Virus record (IMG/VR): IMGVR_UViG_3300021092_000027
Source: an uncultured virus (IMG/VR IMGVR_UViG_3300021092_000027)
Taxonomy: Duplodnaviria > Heunggongvirae > Uroviricota > Caudoviricetes
DNA: 64,000 nucleotides
Direction: 5' to 3' (one strand)
Shown: piece by piece, positions 9,102-49,613 of the stretch
Layout: each line of letters begins with the position of its first letter
Position numbering within the stretch: position 1 is the stretch's first letter
Made by a program: the position numbers and the translations under genes
Notes under the pieces: model-generated
Told to the model about the DNA's origin: nothing
The model's input: the letters and a program-made list of their open reading frames with translations, nothing else
Databases searched by the model: none

Positions 9102-11405
9102 TCAGATCTTACAGGACTCACAATCATCATCAGCGGTTTCAATCTCAGCGATAAGTGCTTCTAACTGAGATCTCTTGGAATCTATGTCTTCATCAGCATC
9201 TTTTTTAGCGTCGTAGGTGTTCTGATAGTAGCTGGTCTTCCAGCCGTACTTATATGTATTCAAAAGGTCTTGTGCCATTACCGAAGTAGGAACTTCATTA
9301 TCTGGATAATTCTCTGGATTATAGGACCAGTTTCCAGAAATCGCTTGATCGAAGAACTTCTGCATAATAGCGACAATATTAATATACCCAGTATTGCTAG
9401 GCATATCCCAAAGAAGCGTGTAATTGTTCTTAAGTGTTTGGTACTGAGGAACAATCTGCTTAAGCGGACCCTTCTTCGACTTCTTAATGGACAGGTAGTC
9501 TCTAGGAGGTTCAATTCCGTTTGTTGCATTTGACACCACGGAACTGCTTTCCGATGGCATCTGTGCGGACAGTGTGCTGTGTCGCAGTCCGTGTTCCATG
9601 ATAGATGCCCTAAGAGATTCCCAGTCATAGAAATAAGCAGGTGCTACTAATTCGTCAACGTCCTTCTTGTATGTATCGATAGGAAGAATACCATCGGCAT
9701 ACTTCGTGCGATTAAATGCTTCACATGCACCTTTCTCTTTAGCAATCTGATTAGATGCTTTGAGAAGATTATATTGGAATGCTTCAGTGAGTTTATGTAC
9801 CTCAGTGCGAGCTACAATATCATCATACTTAATTTTGTGCTTGGCTAGGTAATGTGCCAGACCGATGTATCCAACACCCAAGGAGCGCCTTGCAAGGGTG
9901 CTACGGCGTGCTGCTGCAACAGGATACTCCTGATAGTCAATCAACTCTTCCAATCCTCTTACAGTAAGATCACAGAGTTCTTCCATCTCACTGAGGTGAT
10001 TGATCTTTCCAACGTTGATGGCAGACAAGATACAAAGGGCGATCTCACCATCAGCATCATCGATATGATTGATAGGATCTGTAGGAAGAGTAATCTCCTG
10101 ACACAGGTTGGACATGTTCACCTTATCCTTAAAGGAAGAGTGAGAGTTGCAGTGGTCAATATTCATAATGTAGATGCGACCAGTCTCTGCTCTCTCCTTT
10201 AAAAGATCCAGAAAGAGTTCTTGAGCTCTGACAGTCTTTCTTGGAAGAGACTGATCTCGTTCATAAGACTCATATAAGTCGTCAAATCGATCAGTGCCAA
10301 AAGCATCATACAGACCAGGAACGTCGTGTGGAGAGAAGAGGGAAATCTCTCTATCTTGGATGAATCTCGCATAGAAAAGTTTGGAGATTTGAATGCTGTA
10401 ATCTAGCTTACGGACCCTATTATCTTCGGTTCCTTTATTGTTCTTGAGTACAATAATATCTTCTATTTCTTTGTGCCAGATTGGGAAGTGGACTGTTGCG
10501 CTTCCACCTCGGATGCCATTTTGAGTGCAGCATCGGACAGTTGCTTCAAACTTTTTGAGAAACGGTACAACGCCAGTGTGCTGGACTTCACCACCTCTAA
10601 TTTTGCTGTTGATACCACGGATGCGACCTGCGTTGATACCGATGCCCGCCCTTTGTGCAACATATCTGCCAATAGCCATATCGCTACTAAAGATACTATC
10701 GAGGGTGTCATCAACATCAACAAGAACACAGCTAGCGAATTGTCTAAGTGGCGTTCGCACTCCTGCCATGATGGGGGTTGGAATGTTGATTTTGTGCTTG
10801 CTGATTGCGCTGTAGTATCGACGGACATAATCGATCCTGGTTTCCTTAGGATAATTTTGGAACAGGGTAAGAGCGATCATCATGTACATAAACTGAGGAG
10901 TTTCGTAGTGGACTCCCGAGCTTCTATCCTGGACAAGATATTTATCCACTACTTGTCGCAATCCAGCATATGTAAACAGAAAGTCACGATCGTGATCGAT
11001 GAATCTATTCAGAACATCCCATTCTTCAGCAGAATATTTTGCAAGAATAGTCTTGTCATATACTCCTCTTTCAACACAAAGTTGTACCTGATCTACAAGA
11101 CCAGGAAATTCTTCAGGGTGTCCAAAGACAGACTTCCTCAAACCAAAAAGAAGTAGCCTTGAAGCTACGTATTGGTAGTTTGGGTTGTCTAGAGTAATCA
11201 AATCCGAAGCAGATCGAATCAAGATCTCTTGGATTTGACTTGTCTTGATGCCATCAAAAAATTGCAGACCGCTATTGATTTCTACTTGAGATGGGGAGAC
11301 TCCTGCAAGACCTTCACATGCCAGGTCCACCATCTTATGAACCTTGTCAAGATTAATGGGCTCAGTTCTACCATCTCTCTTAACAACTTTGATTCCGTTA
11401 CTCAT
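9102..11405 (-). CDS. nrdA: Ribonucleotide reductase class Ia alpha subunit
   Basis: ATP cone VVKRDG, QFASCVL, SNLCQEI, KTSYY, C-terminal CESCKI. Confidence 0.98.
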   Translation of the reverse strand: MSNGIKVVKRDGRTEPINLDKVHKMVDLACEGLAGVSPSQVEINSGLQFFDGIKTSQIQEILIRSASDLITLDNPNYQYVASRLLLFGLRKSVFGHPEEFPGLVDQVQLCVERGVYDKTILAKYSAEEWDVLNRFIDHDRDFLFTYAGLRQVVDKYLVQDRSSGVHYETPQFMYMMIALTLFQNYPKETRIDYVRRYYSAISKHKINIPTPIMAGVRTPLRQFASCVLVDVDDTLDSIFSSDMAIGRYVAQRAGIGINAGRIRGINSKIRGGEVQHTGVVPFLKKFEATVRCCTQNGIRGGSATVHFPIWHKEIEDIIVLKNNKGTEDNRVRKLDYSIQISKLFYARFIQDREISLFSPHDVPGLYDAFGTDRFDDLYESYERDQSLPRKTVRAQELFLDLLKERAETGRIYIMNIDHCNSHSSFKDKVNMSNLCQEITLPTDPINHIDDADGEIALCILSAINVGKINHLSEMEELCDLTVRGLEELIDYQEYPVAAARRSTLARRSLGVGYIGLAHYLAKHKIKYDDIVARTEVHKLTEAFQYNLLKASNQIAKEKGACEAFNRTKYADGILPIDTYKKDVDELVAPAYFYDWESLRASIMEHGLRHSTLSAQMPSESSSVVSNATNGIEPPRDYLSIKKSKKGPLKQIVPQYQTLKNNYTLLWDMPSNTGYINIVAIMQKFFDQAISGNWSYNPENYPDNEVPTSVMAQDLLNTYKYGWKTSYYQNTYDAKKDADEDIDSKRSQLEALIAEIETADDDCESCKI

Positions 11406-12397
11406 ACTTTCCAATCTGTAAGTTTTAACTTTGCTTCTAGCCCTTGATAGATGTTAGATTCTATCACATCTTTGGCATTAATGCCAGCTTTAACCATGTC
11501 ATTAATATCCTTTTCGTGAATACCCTTTGGCCAAATAACCACTGGATATCCAGAATCTATTGCTTTCTCAATTCGATCTGTAATTTGTTTGTTTCTCGGT
11601 TCATTATCAAAGATGTATACAAGATTATAGTTGAATCCACTGAGATCTACATCAGCACCACACATGGCGATGCTGTTTTCTAAGAATAGAGAATCGAATG
11701 GTCCTTCAACAACGTATACGGTTTCATCATTCTTTACTCGATCAAGACCAAAAACCTTTGGGGCATCTTCATCTAGCATGATGGTGATATAACGCATTCT
11801 TGCGTCTGGTTCTAGAGATCTTCCCTGGTATCCGAATAGATTTCCTTCCTTGTCTTTGAGTGGAATGATGATGCGTTCATCGTCTTTGTTGGTATCCGAG
11901 AATGTTTCCTTTTGTTTATTCGTCCACTCTTTGAATTTTGGACAGAAATAAAACTCCTTTAATTTTTCTTCTGGAATACCTCTACCAAGCAAATATGCCC
12001 GAGCTGGGTGAAAGTTATTTAGCTCAGATATTGGTGTAAGGTCTATTACTTTTTTTGATTTGAAGACAGGCGTATCAAAGGTCGGAAGGGTTGGTTTGGG
12101 AATAGGAGTTCCCTTACCAGTATGACCTTCACTATAGTGTTCCATCAGATACTCATCATAAAGATGAGGCACCTGCTCCTTTATGAAGTTAGAAAAGGAT
12201 CTACCTACGCCACAGTTATGGCACTTGTAAAAATAATCAGCCCTCTTCTTAACAAGATAACCCCTAGCTTTGTTTCGGTGCTTTTGAGAGTCACCGCAGT
12301 AGGGGCATCGGAAGTTATATACTCCAGGTTTTTTCTTGGAGAACTTATCTAAAAAGGAGGACGAAAGACTTATGTACTTTTCGTCAATAAAACTCAT
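11402..12397 (-). CDS. gp61: DNA primase (T4 gp61-like)
   Basis: Zn finger CPYCGDS…CHNC; TOPRIM EGPFDS, DNEPRN, KDIND. Confidence 0.95.
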   Translation of the reverse strand: MSFIDEKYISLSSSFLDKFSKKKPGVYNFRCPYCGDSQKHRNKARGYLVKKRADYFYKCHNCGVGRSFSNFIKEQVPHLYDEYLMEHYSEGHTGKGTPIPKPTLPTFDTPVFKSKKVIDLTPISELNNFHPARAYLLGRGIPEEKLKEFYFCPKFKEWTNKQKETFSDTNKDDERIIIPLKDKEGNLFGYQGRSLEPDARMRYITIMLDEDAPKVFGLDRVKNDETVYVVEGPFDSLFLENSIAMCGADVDLSGFNYNLVYIFDNEPRNKQITDRIEKAIDSGYPVVIWPKGIHEKDINDMVKAGINAKDVIESNIYQGLEAKLKLTDWKV

Positions 12398-12783
12398 CTA
12401 GGCAACTTTGTCTCTGCCTGAATATTAGCACTGTCTGGGGAAGGAGTCAAGATGGGTTTAAGAATTCTAATACCAGCGTCGGAAACCATAAACGTGAGAA
12501 CAGCGAAAGCTCCAGCGATGCTCCACAGTTTCTTTTCCAATTCTCTGATACGTCCATCAACAAGTTTGATGTCACGCTCACATCCTTTTTTGATTTCGTC
12601 AGTCTTTTCGTGAAGATCTTTATGTATATGTTCTATCTTCTCAAATAAGATGTCATCTGCCTTTTCTTGCTTATCAAGTTTCTCTTGATGAACAGCGAGA
12701 AGCTGCCCCATCTTAATAGAGTTATCTTGAAGTGAAGCTACTATTCTTTCTAGTCTGTCAATAATGGCAGAGTTAGCATCCAT
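12394..12783 (-). CDS. Coiled-coil protein with C-terminal hydrophobic segment
   Basis: 129 aa; LLAVHQEKL; ELEKKLW followed by a TM-like stretch. Confidence 0.75.
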   Translation of the reverse strand: MDANSAIIDRLERIVASLQDNSIKMGQLLAVHQEKLDKQEKADDILFEKIEHIHKDLHEKTDEIKKGCERDIKLVDGRIRELEKKLWSIAGAFAVLTFMVSDAGIRILKPILTPSPDSANIQAETKLPR

Positions 12784-12821: not shown

Positions 12822-13571
12822 TCAAAAGTATATTCTATAAATCCCATTACAATTTACACCATGTCCTTGTAGGGTAATTCTTTTATCATTTGCTGACAAA
12901 TTTTTACCAGGAGCAATTTGATGTAGTACATGCCCAGTATGATAAAAAAGTTTTCCAACTTCATACTCTATGATTTTTGGGGTTGGAACTTGATTTTCTT
13001 TATCTCTAGGATCTTGAAAATTGAAAGTAGATATTTGATCAGCAGTAAGATCTATACTATCCCATAGATATAAAGATCCTCCTGTTTTTGGCAACTCCAA
13101 AGAAAGCGTAAAAGAAAATAAATCATTATAATCAATTGGACCAAATTTATTCCAAACATTATAATGCTCCTGATATTGGATATCAACATGCAAAGAAGCT
13201 AATGGTTTTTGCATCGCTTTCAGTGCAGAAGGAAGCATCATTTCTCCTAACTTTGAACCAAAAATATGAAACCCAGGATATGCAACTTCCGAAAGTAACT
13301 CACAAGGTCCAAAGTGATCGGATAATTTTTTCAAGACAATATCATACAACCAAGAAAAATTCTTGAGTAGTATTGGATTTAAAAGTTTCCTATGCTTGTG
13401 GTACTGCTCTTGACTTCTACACGCATCAATATAAGTTACAGCACCTAACGTATAAAAAGGAACAGGATCAGGAGATCTCCTGATCCAAACCTTGTTTAAT
13501 TTGTGAACTACCTCGACAGATTGCTTAGCTTCAGATTCACTCAATACATCAATATATCCAAAGGGCATCAC
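12822..13571 (-). CDS. 2OG-Fe(II) oxygenase-like protein
   Basis: LHVD, HQIAP, RITLQGH; AT-rich. Confidence 0.75.
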   Translation of the reverse strand: MMPFGYIDVLSESEAKQSVEVVHKLNKVWIRRSPDPVPFYTLGAVTYIDACRSQEQYHKHRKLLNPILLKNFSWLYDIVLKKLSDHFGPCELLSEVAYPGFHIFGSKLGEMMLPSALKAMQKPLASLHVDIQYQEHYNVWNKFGPIDYNDLFSFTLSLELPKTGGSLYLWDSIDLTADQISTFNFQDPRDKENQVPTPKIIEYEVGKLFYHTGHVLHQIAPGKNLSANDKRITLQGHGVNCNGIYRIYF

Positions 13572-14296
13572 ATTTGCATGAAGTTGATAACAAAGTCTGC
13601 GCTTGATGGAAGAAGATTAATAAACTTTTCCATATTTTCTTCGCTGAGTTCTTCAAATCTAGCGATGAATTGTCCTGCCATCTCAGCAGTAACTTCCAGT
13701 TCGCTCTCGTCGTTAAAGAAATAGTATACTGGATTTTGATTCTCTTCTTTGAGTTGACTTAAAAACGATTCAAGATAAGTCAAACCATCAAAGTCATATG
13801 AATTATTTTGTGCTTGCCTCTGCAGTTGCTGTGCGAGACTTTGCTGACGTGCTTTTGCTTTCTTCTGATAGTCAGTAGACTTAGCACGAGAAATTAATTG
13901 AATCTCTTGCTTACGATTTGCTGCACGCTTTTCACGCTCTTGCTTCTTCAGAACCTTACGTTTCTGAGCGATGAATTTATAAGCTTGTTTGGTTGTTTCT
14001 CCACCACTCGATGAAGAACTAGATCCTTCAGCTTCAAGAATTGTTTCTTCTGACATTTTTCTTTTGCGTTTAGCGAGACGTTTAATAAGTTTGCGAGCAG
14101 CTTGACTCCTACCATCTATATAGGTAGGATCATTTCTACGACGTTCCCACTGTTTACCAGCGGCTTCCATTTTCTTACGTTTTTTAGTTGCCCTTTTGGA
14201 AAATTTCATGATTGGATCGACGCCAGCGATGGCACCTTGCCCAGTCGTAGGTGTATTAATAGGACCAACGTTTGTAATTCCTGCAGATCCCATCAT
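13568..14296 (-). CDS. Hypothetical basic protein with a gp23-like N-terminal arm
   Basis: 242 aa; residues 8-29 match gp23 of this genome. Confidence 0.8.
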   Translation of the reverse strand: MMGSAGITNVGPINTPTTGQGAIAGVDPIMKFSKRATKKRKKMEAAGKQWERRRNDPTYIDGRSQAARKLIKRLAKRKRKMSEETILEAEGSSSSSSGGETTKQAYKFIAQKRKVLKKQEREKRAANRKQEIQLISRAKSTDYQKKAKARQQSLAQQLQRQAQNNSYDFDGLTYLESFLSQLKEENQNPVYYFFNDESELEVTAEMAGQFIARFEELSEENMEKFINLLPSSADFVINFMQM

Positions 14297-14664
14297 AACT
14301 TTTTCAACTCCTCTATTATTTCATCGTTGATTTTGATTTCCCTTAGGCTTGTAGTATCTGGTTCTGGATATCTACTCAGGAAAATCATGAGCGATTTCAA
14401 AATTGACCAGAACTCCTTTTCCATTTTGAAAAATAGGAGAGGAGTTGCAGCTTCACCAAAAACATTATACAGTATGATGATATGATTTAAAAGAAGATTT
14501 AACTTAATCTCCTCACCCTTTGAATACTTTTTTAAGAGGCGCTTTATGTATTTAAAGCGCCTCAAGTCTTCAAAGAAATCCTCTTTGGTTGCTGCCTGAG
14601 GATTGTCATAATTTCTAATGGCGAAGAGAAGATAATTATCTTCATTCAATTCATCAAATCTCAT
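14293..14664 (-). CDS. Conserved T4-like hypothetical protein (MRFDELNEDNYLLFAI…LNHIIILYNVFG)
   Basis: 123 aa; motif recognised from T4-like phages. Confidence 0.8.
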   Translation of the reverse strand: MRFDELNEDNYLLFAIRNYDNPQAATKEDFFEDLRRFKYIKRLLKKYSKGEEIKLNLLLNHIIILYNVFGEAATPLLFFKMEKEFWSILKSLMIFLSRYPEPDTTSLREIKINDEIIEELKKL

Positions 14665-14673
14665 TACAAGTTA

Positions 14674-15291
14674 TCAGGTTCCAAAGGTCAGAGTTGCAGC
14701 GCCATTAGAAATCACTTCTTCTGTACCGCCAGTAGAAGTGACTTTAACGCGATACTTGTAACCATTAAGGGTAGCACCTGCAAGACCGCTATATGCGAGA
14801 GTTGCTGTTGTGAAACCAGCATAGGTGATACCGCTATCAAGAGAGGCAGTGATATCGGTCCAACGACTGCCAGTTGCGGTTTGACGCTGCCACTGATAAA
14901 CAAGAGTTCCAGGAGTTCCAGTTGTCGTTGTAGTAAGGGTGAATGAACCAGCACCAGAGGAAGAAGTGGAACTTGCAGGTTGAACAGTAATAGTTACTGA
15001 CGATGCTACGTCTGCTGCGTATGCGTCATCAGCGAGAGTCTCATCAGCGTTAGCTTCAGGACCAGCAACTACAACCATCAGTTCTGCTTTGTGACGGGTG
15101 TTACCGTGCATGTCGGTATAGGTATCATACGCCCACCAACCTGGAGAAGTCAAACCGCGAGACTTGTTCTCCTCAAGCTGAGCTTCAGTGTCATCGATGA
15201 AAACAATTATTTTTGTGTTTGAGTCTGAAACAACACCACGACCAGCCTTAGTCTGGTTCTCGGTGCTGTCCGTTCTTCCGTATAAGGACAT
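14674..15291 (-). CDS. Virion structural protein with C-terminal Ig-like domain
   Basis: ITVQP…YQWQ…YKYRVKV…ATLT pattern; TATAAATA late promoter upstream. Confidence 0.75.
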   Translation of the reverse strand: MSLYGRTDSTENQTKAGRGVVSDSNTKIIVFIDDTEAQLEENKSRGLTSPGWWAYDTYTDMHGNTRHKAELMVVVAGPEANADETLADDAYAADVASSVTITVQPASSTSSSGAGSFTLTTTTTGTPGTLVYQWQRQTATGSRWTDITASLDSGITYAGFTTATLAYSGLAGATLNGYKYRVKVTSTGGTEEVISNGAATLTFGT

Positions 15292-15323: not shown

Positions 15324-15357
15324 TATTTATAAAAAGGGAGACCTTATTTGTCTCTCA
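15324..15357 (-). promoter_or_regulatory. Terminator hairpin followed by a T4 late promoter
   Basis: GAGAGAC…GTCTCCCTTTT then TATAAATA on the minus strand. Confidence 0.65.
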
Positions 15358-46457: not shown

Positions 46458-47819
46458 TCACATGAGGTTCTTAACGCGAACGCGACGATAGTAAGCGTTA
46501 GCAGACAGGTTGCTGCTGTGCTGAGGATCGCTATTGCTCAGTGCAGTCAGACCCTTAGCAAATGGGTTCAGGACCATGCCGTAGCGGGTCTTGAATCCGA
46601 TGCGTGGCTGGAAGGTATCCTGACCGATCGCTCTGTACATTTGCAGAGGAACGTATGGGCAATAGAAGAGACCAGCGTCATAAGCGTTGGAACCCTTGTA
46701 GCCAACAACGTAGTATTGGTCAGAAGCAACGTTTGCCGAATAAGGATCAATATAGACCTTGAAGCGACCGTTGAGAGTGCCGACAAAGGTGTTACCAGTG
46801 TCATCGATCTCGCCCAGACCACCAACAGCTTGATTGATGCCGCTGGAGTAGTCCAGAACGCCTGCCATAGCGAGTGCAGAAGCAACGTCAGCAGAAGTGA
46901 CGATGACGTTACCCTTCCCTCTACGAGTCTCTTGTGCGATTGCGTTGGCATCGCGCTCGATTTGGAAGAGCAGACCTTTGAACTTCTCAACCGACCAACG
47001 ACCGTTGGAGTCAACGTCGAGGTCAAATACGCCAGCGTTAGCAACGTTAGCTTGAGCACCAGGCTTAGCACCGCGATATACGGTACGAACAACCTCACGG
47101 TTGATCTCAGCAAGGATCTCGGTTGACAGAATGTTTGCCAGCTCCGACTCGGCATCAAGACCGTGGATCGCCTTGAGGTCTTGTGCCAGTTCAACGGAGT
47201 AATCGGCTCTCAGCGCACGACCTTTTGCTTCAACAGCAATACGATCGATGGTGAATGCCATCTCGTTGAACTCACTACCGCTGTCACCAGCAGCTTCCAG
47301 GTTTGAAGTGGAGAGCTTGGAGGAAGCGAGGTCGTAGTTGGTTGCGGTTGTACCACCACCAGTTGCGTCGTTGATCAGACCTGGGTTCAGTTCTGTGGTT
47401 GGGGTTGTGGTTGCGCCCAGAGTACCAGAGAACTGTGCGTCTGCCTCGTCGAAGAAGGCTTCAGAACCAGTCTGGTTGGTGTAACGTGAACGCATCGCGA
47501 AGATGAGTCCAGTAGGACCTGTCATAGGTTGAACACCTGCGATGTCATAAGCAATCAGCTTAGGCATCGAACGGCGGATCAGGCTAATGAGGATAGGGTC
47601 GAAACCGAAAACATTACCTGATGCGGTTGTTGGGGTGTTGATAGGACCAACGTTGGTTGGTGCTTCGGTAAGGATGGCACGCTCCTCACGCATAGCTTTC
47701 TCTTGGTTTTCCAGGAGGATAGCGGTAACAGCCTTACGATAGTTATCCTTGATTTCAGGAAGACCATCATGGTTAAGGACTGGTGACCACTTCTCTTGGA
47801 GGTTCTCAGATTGATACAT
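46458..47819 (-). CDS. gp23: Major capsid protein
   Basis: LLENQE, GVQPMTGPTGLIFAMR, ELAQDLKAIHGLDAE, FKTRYG. Confidence 0.98.
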   Translation of the reverse strand: MYQSENLQEKWSPVLNHDGLPEIKDNYRKAVTAILLENQEKAMREERAILTEAPTNVGPINTPTTASGNVFGFDPILISLIRRSMPKLIAYDIAGVQPMTGPTGLIFAMRSRYTNQTGSEAFFDEADAQFSGTLGATTTPTTELNPGLINDATGGGTTATNYDLASSKLSTSNLEAAGDSGSEFNEMAFTIDRIAVEAKGRALRADYSVELAQDLKAIHGLDAESELANILSTEILAEINREVVRTVYRGAKPGAQANVANAGVFDLDVDSNGRWSVEKFKGLLFQIERDANAIAQETRRGKGNVIVTSADVASALAMAGVLDYSSGINQAVGGLGEIDDTGNTFVGTLNGRFKVYIDPYSANVASDQYYVVGYKGSNAYDAGLFYCPYVPLQMYRAIGQDTFQPRIGFKTRYGMVLNPFAKGLTALSNSDPQHSSNLSANAYYRRVRVKNLM

Positions 47820-48965: not shown

Positions 48966-49613
48966 TCACAAATTTCTGAGGAAAAGTTCAAATGCGCGTA
49001 ACTTTCTCTCTTGAAGCTCTTGACTACTGGGTGCAGTGTCAAGCATTTGCTTGATCTGTTCGATGTGTACTTCCTTAATGCGGTTACCTTCCATGACCCA
49101 CTCTTTACCTTCATAGATTCCCTCAACAAATGCATCGGGGGCAGAAGGATCTGCTACGATATCCGCAGCAGTAGCAAGCATAAAGTCATCAGCAACTACA
49201 TTAGTGTTTCCCTCTTTTCTAATGGAACCAAGTCCTCTAGAAGAGACACCGAGCTGAACCCCCTCGTCAAGTAAGCTCTTTGCGATCTTACCCATAGGGG
49301 TTTCTAAAAGTTTTGCCTTACCAATAAAGTTTGTACCTTCTGGATAAAGCTCAACAATTTTATGTGACACACGATCGAGGTTAATCGTTGGACCGTCAGG
49401 ATGTCCAAGTTCTCCGAGAGCACGTCCGCGCTGAACGAACTCTTCGTTGTACTTATTGACCTCACGTTCCATGGTTGCATATTTGTACATGCGCCCATTT
49501 CTGTTATTGATCTCAGTTTGAAGGAAGATACCCTTAATAAAAGTATCTTTCTTACCGTCGTTTTCTTCGGTAAGAATTTCAATATCTTCAATCTGTTCCG
49601 TGATCAGTTTCAT
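48966..49613 (-). CDS. gp21: Prohead protease
   Basis: NRNGRMY, GELGHP, GVSSRGLGS, DPSAPDA. Confidence 0.97.
   Translation of the reverse strand: MKLITEQIEDIEILTEENDGKKDTFIKGIFLQTEINNRNGRMYKYATMEREVNKYNEEFVQRGRALGELGHPDGPTINLDRVSHKIVELYPEGTNFIGKAKLLETPMGKIAKSLLDEGVQLGVSSRGLGSIRKEGNTNVVADDFMLATAADIVADPSAPDAFVEGIYEGKEWVMEGNRIKEVHIEQIKQMLDTAPSSQELQERKLRAFELFLRNL

Follow-up and report, generated by a model that had tools for sequence, protein, structure and literature searches.

A 64,000-nucleotide stretch of DNA from an uncultured virus (IMG/VR record IMGVR_UViG_3300021092_000027; Caudoviricetes), referred to here as the window, encodes a 242-residue protein whose N-terminus copies the arm that follows the predicted maturation cut of gp23, the major capsid protein of the same virus. 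Sequence comparisons indicate that this copy is not a chance likeness and that it is maintained at the protein level. The window belongs to a marine T4-like cyanomyophage whose closest isolates are the Prochlorococcus phages P-HM1, P-HM2 and MED4-213, and it holds a T4-type head module comprising the portal gp20 (Portal_T4), a prohead protease (Peptidase_S77), a scaffold protein (T4_CASP) and gp23. The gene in question occupies a recurrent place in the order head protein, DUF7207, slot gene, other genes, DUF7201 and primase gp61, and we refer to it and its counterparts as slot genes and to their products as slot proteins. The reading that we favour, at slightly less than an even chance, is that the slot gene encodes a late head protein that mimics gp23, enters the prohead, is cut by the gp21-type protease and leaves a basic product in the head.

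Published accounts of the T4 head provide the frame for the comparison. In T4, gp23 loses 65 residues at its N-terminus (PMC9958956), gp21 cuts after L/I-X-E (PMC9026906), and gp23 residues 66-91 form the N-fist (PMC7136217), which contacts four subunits (PMC9958956). In the T4 prohead the N-terminal region of gp23 is on the inside; it is cleaved behind residue 65 and comes to the outer surface on expansion (PMC9958956, PMC9546572, PMC7136217). In the window the region of gp23 that is copied reads ...AILTE-AP-TNVGPINTPTTASGNVFGFDPI-LISLIRR, and the slot protein begins MMGSAGI-TNVGPINTPTTGQGAIAGVDPI-MKF. The two segments align without a gap, with 16 of 22 residues and 43 of the 66 underlying bases identical, exactly at the positions given by an initial annotation made from the sequence alone (Table 1). 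BLASTP of the slot protein against gp23 returns the arm stretch (E 1e-09, 21 of 43 residues identical) and nothing else of note, and 0 of 5000 shuffles of the gp23 segment reach the arm score of the window. The pattern G.[IV][AFY]G[FLVY][DP]P, which describes the C-terminal core of the arm, occurs at two places only in the window, the slot gene and gp23; a search with the 36-residue gp23 segment found exactly these two places per genome in P-HM1 and P-HM2, both complete genomes, and in the nearest record, G001, which is a fragment of 78 kb with a completeness rating of 42%.

The initial annotation had called the slot protein unrelated to gp23 apart from the arm, and this description is upheld. 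The protein has no Pfam family, the sole PHROG listed for it is phrog_4187 (unknown function), whose profile match spans residues 2-236 (E 9.8e-51), and its AlphaFold2 model, made up largely of helices with a small alpha/beta domain at the end, shows no capsid fold; we found no Pfam or structural indication of membership in PF07068 or among HK97 capsid proteins. It is 57-61% identical to PHM1_169 and PHM2_171, and 2076 metagenomic relatives were found at E<=0.001. The start ATG of the slot gene overlaps the stop of the upstream gene, and the reading frame opens merely 8 codons upstream of this start and holds no start codon there, so that the arm of the window protein is made 'already mature'.

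The likeness is preserved in the peptide and not in the DNA. Within the run of 11 identical residues 7 codons differ synonymously, as originally counted, and 10 differ over all 16 identical residues. In the 9 genomes where the arm pairing is clear, 145 residues are identical and degenerate, and at 69 of these the codon is shared between slot gene and gp23, against 66.9 expected from codon usage; same-codon use is not elevated in the Straboviridae either (44 observed, 62.5 expected). Same-codon use at the chance level means that synonymous sites have been randomised, and recent gene conversion therefore does not explain the likeness; a recent DNA copy is ruled out on this ground in both the cyanophages and the Straboviridae. 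The arm is also the most conserved part of the protein: among 21 homologues, down to 67% identity, 18 of its 22 positions are invariant, compared with 109 of the 242 positions of the whole protein and 22 of the 77 that make up the C-terminal domain. The synonymous differences, the codon test and the invariance of the arm together bear out the earlier suggestion that selection acts on the peptide and that no recent DNA copy is involved.

A further test, proposed with the initial annotation, was whether the N-terminus follows the gp23 arm of its own genome, and for this we compared slot protein and gp23 in 19 records, namely the window, 12 isolates of cyanophages, a virus record from a single cell, three IMG/VR contigs, and two phages that are not cyanophages, Melnitz and phiM12. 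Pairs from IMG/VR are few because the two genes are separated by 33 kb, a distance that most contigs do not span; of five long contigs, three carry a full-length gp23, one its C-terminal end only and one none. Ten of the 19 slot proteins match their own gp23 arm at <=5/5000 shuffles (9 of 17 cyanophage records, and phiM12), these being the window, P-HM1, P-HM2, AG-345-L05, S-SKS1, S-SM1, P-SSM4, P-TIM68, S-PRM1 and phiM12, with counts of 0/5000 in nine and 2/5000 in S-SKS1. Across the 17 cyanophage records the own-genome scores sum to 741, compared with 486 +/- 46.5 for shuffled pairings, and 0 of 100,000 permutations reach that sum; with one genome per clade (10 clades), the permutation fraction is <=0.0012 in 54 of 54 combinations. 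Slot proteins fall into several unrelated families, including phrog_4187, 696, 3286 and others. The broader proposition of an own-gp23 copy in every one of the 17 cyanophage slot proteins failed the shuffle control and was rejected. The outcome of the test is partly positive: ten records match, the permutations and the P-HM2 change described next agree with tracking, and eight records, to which we return below, do not match above chance.

Individual gene pairs illustrate the correspondence. P-HM2 reads INTQTT in both genes and P-HM1 and the window read INTPTT, a Pro-to-Gln change, and within the P-HM2 pair the adjacent upstream Thr codon and the Thr codon two positions downstream differ. P-SSM4 has LQTTGYTTGDTATGPVAGFDPV in gp23 and MQTTGYTGADAATGPTAGYDPV in the slot protein, and the P-TIM68 pair shares GAQGGFGG...GP.AGFD; such clade-specific strings are common to the slot protein and its own gp23 in P-SSM4, P-TIM68, S-PRM1 and phiM12. 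The arm is short in both genes of S-SKS1 and long in both genes of its relative AG-345-L05. An own-arm search of the Melnitz and phiM12 genomes returned gp23 alone, and Melnitz stays negative; direct alignment in phiM12 found a short C-terminal arm with 12 of 17 residues identical (0/5000 shuffles), and the genome search was therefore too insensitive there. Most slot proteins have a short amphipathic leader ending in xE(E/D) before the arm, which mirrors the end of the gp23 propeptide and which the subfamily of the window lacks, and in most of the slot proteins a Lys/Arg run follows the arm within about 15 residues. Minimal forms are Bellamy gp176 (70 residues), the ACG-2014f protein (61 residues) and the S-PRM1 protein (77 residues).

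Two observations concern the arms themselves. The slot proteins of AG-345-L05 (L086 2662-3165) and S-SKS1 (L087 2501-2959) carry two arm modules, each after (L/I)xE(E), of which the N-terminal one copies the own gp23 arm and the C-terminal one is of the 'PTN...GAIAGLPP...KKKRK' type. In an alignment of 25 cyanophage gp23 proteins, at least 12 residues after APTN are hypervariable in sequence and length, and the rest averages 68% column identity.

The same design is found in T4. A search of the T4 genome with the post-cleavage segment of T4 gp23 finds gp23 and one other place, gene 61.1 (E 2.4e-5). Its product aligns with T4 gp23 without a gap over 37 residues across the maturation cut (marked here by a slash), KTFKEFIKE/DMVAGDSGGNPENISIGTTSGAVVNKGP to QAFGSFLTE/AEIGGDHGYNATNIAAGQTSGAVTQIGP, an alignment reached by 0 of 2000 shuffles, and the arm is followed by KKKK and an acidic tail. 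A degenerate pattern of the first eight codons of 61.1 matches four T4 genes only, ipI, ipII, ipIII and 61.1 (reversed control, 0 matches), and the first 10 residues of IPIII are a capsid-targeting sequence (PMC9026906). Gene 61.1 combines the internal-protein start motif, an IxE site, a gp23-like arm and KKKK, and on this sequence evidence it is a candidate for a fourth targeted head protein of T4. A match to gp61.1 occurs in 1432 phage records, some annotated 'major capsid (domain) protein'; in all seven Straboviridae compared, T4 and six diverse others, the gene adjoins that of the primase, and 14-19 residues of its product are identical to the own gp23 arm. In the long forms (Ac42, V07, Cronuts, PSTCR6 and phiM12) an N-terminal domain that the Melnitz protein also has comes first, and the arm stands close to the C-terminus. 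We found no function for gp61.1 in the open-access and bioRxiv literature, to which all literature searches reported here were confined.

Sequence homology of the cyanophage slot proteins to T4-type gp61.1 was not demonstrable, most pairs scoring no better than shuffles, and common descent is accordingly argued from design and position only. There are hints at the sequence level that the capsid-targeting sequence itself may imitate the gp23 cut site. The targeting sequences of IPII and IPIII align with gp23 residues 57-66, the end of the propeptide (F..F/I..E, cut, A), an alignment that is not significant (132 and 539 of 2000 shuffles). Relatives are labelled 'major capsid protein', 'major capsid domain-containing protein' or 'major head protein' (phrog_696), probably because of the shared arm.

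The AlphaFold2 model of the slot protein has moderate confidence (pLDDT 65, pTM 0.23) and was used for domain layout only. Residues 1-27 are modelled as a disordered arm, and the region that follows is strongly basic, with 22 Lys and Arg in the 58 residues 31-88 (pI 11.3; 11.1 for residues 1-88), a composition that suggests DNA binding. The earlier proposal that an internal ILE could be a gp21 cut is consistent with two findings: (I/L)xE is kept at residues 86-88 in 120 of 120 close homologues, and the window encodes a Peptidase_S77 protease. The middle residue and the residues after the site vary, the variants being LLE before Y in 56, ILE before A in 34, IRE before E in 28 and ILE before Q in 2, and (I/L)xE is present at the equivalent position in a distant subfamily as well. 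Foldseek of the model against the Protein Data Bank gave no match at E<=0.001. A complex prediction with two copies of gp23 residues 77-453 and slot residues 1-60 gave no answer (score 0.00) and weighs neither for nor against docking; the T4 N-fist site takes in four subunits from two capsomers.

Published expression and proteomic data bear on a role in the head. In the P-HM2 transcriptome PHM2_171 is classed 'Late (D)' in light and dark, like g20; PHM2_169 and PHM2_170 are Late, the next gene PHM2_172 is 'Mid (C)', and g61 and the gene between it and PHM2_171 are Mid (PMC5082946 S2 Table). Table S8 of Sullivan et al. 2010 (PMC3037559) gives the slot protein of S-SM1, in cluster T4-GC 426, the entry 'Structural protein, Y', with 17 counts. 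The initial annotation had proposed that the protein docks in the capsid pocket of the gp23 arm, as a minor capsid or vertex protein or an assembly regulator. A head role is consistent with the late P-HM2 orthologue and the S-SM1 listing; the start of the T4 counterpart points inward, and not to the vertex or an outer minor capsid position.

According to the favoured reading, the slot protein would belong to a class encoded beside the primase gene in T4-like phages, with gene 61.1 as its T4 representative. The disordered N-terminus would copy the gp23 stretch that becomes the new N-terminus after the maturation cut, and the protein would consequently be handled like gp23 during prohead assembly, recruited by whatever binds the N-terminal region of gp23. 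The gp21-type protease would cut it after I86-L87-E88, the 88-residue product (arm and two very basic helices) would be retained with the DNA and/or on the shell wall, and the C-terminal half would be released. Prohead entry, the cut, DNA binding and a partner for the arm are all steps that we infer, and the arm may serve either in targeting (to scaffold or protease) or in anchoring (at a lattice site), as co-variation with gp23 fits both. Since T4 61.1 starts like the internal proteins, it points to the head interior rather than to the vertex or an outer minor capsid position. A copied gp23 region, often with its cut site, together with that start makes prohead uptake and maturation alongside gp23 the simplest reading.

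Several results weigh against this reading. A leader of about 10 residues ending in L/I-X-E is absent from the window protein, whose first Glu is residue 44; with neither leader nor Glu before the arm, targeting by a removable sequence of the T4 type cannot apply as such. In the own-arm shuffle test one of the 19 records is borderline and eight are not above chance. Three of these eight, S-RSM4, S-CAM1 and S-RIM44, have N-termini that do not follow their own gp23 (the S-RSM4 protein, SRSM4_056, falls in phrog_4187, E 1.3e-123), the arm of S-SM1 comes only 8th among 17 when ranked for its own gp23, and a 'second type' of arm (E/xPTN...G.IAG.PP...KKKRK; distant subfamily, Bellamy, ACG-2014f) does not track gp23. 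The non-matching slot proteins share a pattern only, namely E, xPTN, G.IAG, PP and a Lys run. Among the Straboviridae 831 of 5040 permutations reach the own-genome sum, and no genome-specific signal is present, because the arm barely varies there. When the slot protein is scored against four gp61.1 proteins, 13 to 1130 of 2000 shuffles do as well (132 of 2000 for T4), TATAAATA was not found in the T4 61.1 region, and gp61.1 is missing from the T4 head composition table of PMC9026906.

The proteomic listing calls for similar caution. The gene for T4-GC 426 is present in Syn9 and its peptides were undetected, and cluster 425 also reads 'Y 17' (PMC3037559 Table S8). In the FASTA file of PMC3037559 the cluster labels of S-SM1 genes 194-197 are one too low relative to GenBank (SSM1_197 appears as T4-GC_425), and given this shift and the identical 17 counts, one S-SM1 detection may have been entered twice. 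The family of the window protein, T4-GC 538, occurs only in P-HM1 and P-HM2, both outside the proteomics set of PMC3037559.

The alternative that survives best, although we consider it unlikely, is that the arm docks on the lattice after expansion and fills a gp23 N-fist site on the shell, which would make the protein a minor capsid, cement or vertex component and not an internal one. A candidate place is the surroundings of the portal, where an N-fist has no partner capsomer; in the five portal-distal subunits the N-fists face the portal and are disordered for that reason (PMC7136217). What is copied is the segment that follows the cleavage, which as the T4 N-fist contacts four subunits (PMC9958956), co-variation with gp23 is what a shared lattice site predicts, and both the 'born mature', leaderless arm of the window and the virion listing of S-SM1 agree with such a role. 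However, the T4 N-fist ends on the outer surface (PMC9958956), and the polybasic remainder and protease-type sites of the slot protein suit the interior. The regular N-fist sites are, moreover, all occupied by gp23 itself, and no head structure of a marine T4-like cyanophage was found in the literature searched.

Somewhat less probable again is a non-structural regulator, in which the arm would be a decoy for whatever pairs with unassembled gp23 (protease, scaffold, chaperone or gp23 itself), so as to time assembly or maturation, and the protein would not be kept in the virion. The mimicry spans the maturation cut in T4 61.1 and several cyanophage slot proteins, like that of a pseudo-substrate, and neither the undetected Syn9 peptides nor the T4 head tables, which do not list gp61.1, would be surprising for such a protein. 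Late co-expression with head genes, the internal-protein-type start of T4 61.1 and the S-SM1 virion listing speak against a decoy, and small Lys/Arg-rich products would presumably be missed easily by tryptic proteomics.

We regard as very unlikely a replication-linked DNA-binding protein whose place beside gene 61 reflects a role with primase or helicase and whose likeness to gp23 is incidental. The adjacency to primase in all seven Straboviridae and proximity to it in all 17 cyanophage records, the basic helices, and the lack of a late-promoter consensus in the T4 61.1 region are all compatible with it, but the P-HM2 slot gene is Late (D) and g61 and the intervening gene are Mid, and selection on the gp23 copy, its tracking and the internal-protein start in T4 would be left unexplained. 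Least credible of all is that low-complexity segments rich in Gly, Thr and Pro are alike by chance, or that an old gene conversion has left a relic without function, since, even though the arms are Gly/Ala/Thr-rich and 8 of 19 slot proteins show pattern-level resemblance only, the shuffle counts of the ten matching records, the arm's standing as the most conserved part, the randomised synonymous sites and the recurrence of the design in a different virus family all speak against it.

Among known systems, the nearest kind to the processed head protein that we favour would be the T4 internal proteins with their capsid-targeting sequence; here the address would be a retained copy of the capsid protein's arm. 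IPI, IPII and IPIII are small basic head proteins of the prohead core, cut by gp21 after L/I-X-E and kept with the DNA (PMC9026906, PMC9958956), and their start motif is common to gene 61.1, which shares its design with the window gene. They have no sequence homology to the window protein, and unlike them the window protein has as its conserved element a copy of the gp23 post-cleavage arm that stays on the product, has no removable leader, and has its candidate cut internally at residues 86-88. To judge from sequence, T4 61.1 has a leader of the removable kind, as do the distant subfamily and others of the slot proteins. The gp61.1-like proteins (phrog_1823, short form; phrog_2086, long form) resemble the window protein in a gp23-like arm followed by a Lys/Arg run and in lying on the primase side of the replication cluster; the T4 form differs in its internal-protein-type leader and its length of just 54 residues, and the PHROG scan of the window protein lists phrog_4187 and no gp61.1-like profile. 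Proteins of T4-GC 426 / phrog_696 (S-SM1 SSM1_197, P-SSM4 PSSM4_163, Syn9 gp190) occupy the same slot after DUF7207 and likewise begin with a copy of their own gp23 arm and a basic run, but the remainder differs and forms a separate PHROG labelled 'major head protein'.

Accessory proteins that recognise the expanded gp23 lattice are known in Soc and Hoc, the T4 N-fist being part of the Soc site (PMC9546572); they have no homology to the window protein, attach externally once the shell has expanded, are not basic and do not serve as substrates of the protease. The vertex protein gp24 also shares sequence with gp23, but it is a full HK97-fold paralogue (PF07068), and the window protein shares only about 22-43 residues. 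A single PF07068 gene was found in each of 18 records outside the Straboviridae with a match (cyanophages, Melnitz and phiM12); T4 has two (gp23 and gp24) and six other Straboviridae two or three. In encapsulins, a short Gly/Ala/Ile-rich cargo-loading peptide directs cargo to an HK97-fold shell, and such peptides are not known to copy the terminus of the shell protein itself.

Table 1. Features of the slot protein, gp23 and the surrounding genes (window positions unless another record is named)
Feature	Position	Strand	Remarks
Slot gene	13568..14296	-	242 aa; orthologue of P-HM1 PHM1_169 / P-HM2 PHM2_171 (T4-GC 538); phrog_4187
gp23-arm copy, residues 8-29 of slot protein	14210..14275	-	16/22 identical to gp23; positional equivalent of T4 N-fist
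Strongly basic region, residues 31-85	14042..14206	-	two predicted helices, 28-55 and 65-90 (AlphaFold2)
I86-L87-E88, candidate prohead-protease site	14033..14041	-	end of helix 2, before disordered Ser/Gly linker
Long Lys/Gln/Arg-rich helix, residues 105-165 (AlphaFold2: 101-163)	13802..13984	-	composition and AlphaFold2
Small acidic alpha/beta C-terminal domain, residues 166-242 (AlphaFold2: 171-241)	13571..13801	-	pI 4.1; most variable part
gp23 major capsid protein	46458..47819	-	453 aa; Pfam Gp23 (PF07068) E 2.1e-143
Copied arm, gp23 residues 55-76	47592..47657	-	ungapped alignment with slot protein
gp23 L50-T51-E52, predicted maturation cut	47664..47672	-	by analogy with T4, FLTE/AEIGG at equivalent place
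gp21-type prohead protease (Peptidase_S77), presumed processing enzyme	48966..49613	-	family match
T4 gene 61.1	NC_000866 18966-19130 (L200 2467-2631)	-	54 aa, hypothetical; directly upstream of primase gene 61
gp61-type DNA primase, conserved downstream landmark	11402..12397	-	family match
DUF7201 protein	12394..12783	-	coiled coil and hydrophobic C-terminal segment; conserved between slot and primase
249-aa protein	12822..13571	-	phrog_24927, T4-GC 539; between slot gene and DUF7201; start overlaps slot-gene stop
DUF7207 (PF23837), upstream neighbour	14293..14664	-	Pfam; marks slot in 486 phage records
205-aa head protein, opens gene run	14674..15291	-	phrog_613 'head protein'; relatives T4-GC 537 and 425 listed as virion proteins
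TATAAATA, late-promoter-like motif	15324..15331	-	33-40 nt upstream of 205-aa head-protein gene

The surroundings of the slot gene are themselves conserved. The gene lies near the primase gene in 17 of 17 cyanophage records inspected; in the window it is on the same strand, but two genes (12822-13571 and 12394-12783) separate the two. DUF7207 directly precedes the slot gene wherever inspected and is translationally coupled to it, and the records that hold DUF7207 include Sinorhizobium, Methylophilales and Pelagibacter phages. The 249-aa protein encoded between the slot gene and DUF7201 has a P-HM2 orthologue classed 'Mid (C)' and not late, even though the two genes overlap at start and stop in the window. 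The DUF7201 family differs from T4 gp40 (PF11113), the membrane-associated head-vertex assembly chaperone encoded in the corresponding T4 neighbourhood. The motif TATAAATA, which we take to be the T4 late-promoter consensus, stands directly upstream of the head-protein, gp22 and gp18 genes. Its copies in the window start at 15324, 17876, 29290, 29894, 48956 and 54154, all on the minus strand and all on the coding strand; these six are no significant excess, as 7 of 100 shuffles reach six.

We found no description of a gp23-arm copy in another protein in the open-access and bioRxiv literature, the subscription literature on T4 lying outside that search. A bolder proposal, which we hold to be improbable in its full form, is that two T4-like families share an unrecognised head component (gp61.1 in T4; phrog_4187, 696 and 3286 in cyanophages) whose N-fist copy would insert where an N-fist is missing or unpaired, for example at the portal vertex, and whose polybasic helices would hold DNA, forming a rivet between genome and shell that co-evolves with gp23. 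The reading that we favour is directly testable in T4 with existing methods. If it is right, it would offer a way into the N-terminal stretch of cyanophage gp23, a widely used environmental marker gene in which this stretch is hypervariable, and the database labels 'major capsid protein' and 'major head protein' of relatives would be corrected. It would further represent a new form of capsid addressing, by means of a copy of the capsid protein's own maturation site and arm, in which the two genes would be forced to co-evolve, and the assembly of T4-superfamily heads would then have a conserved player that has been overlooked even in T4.

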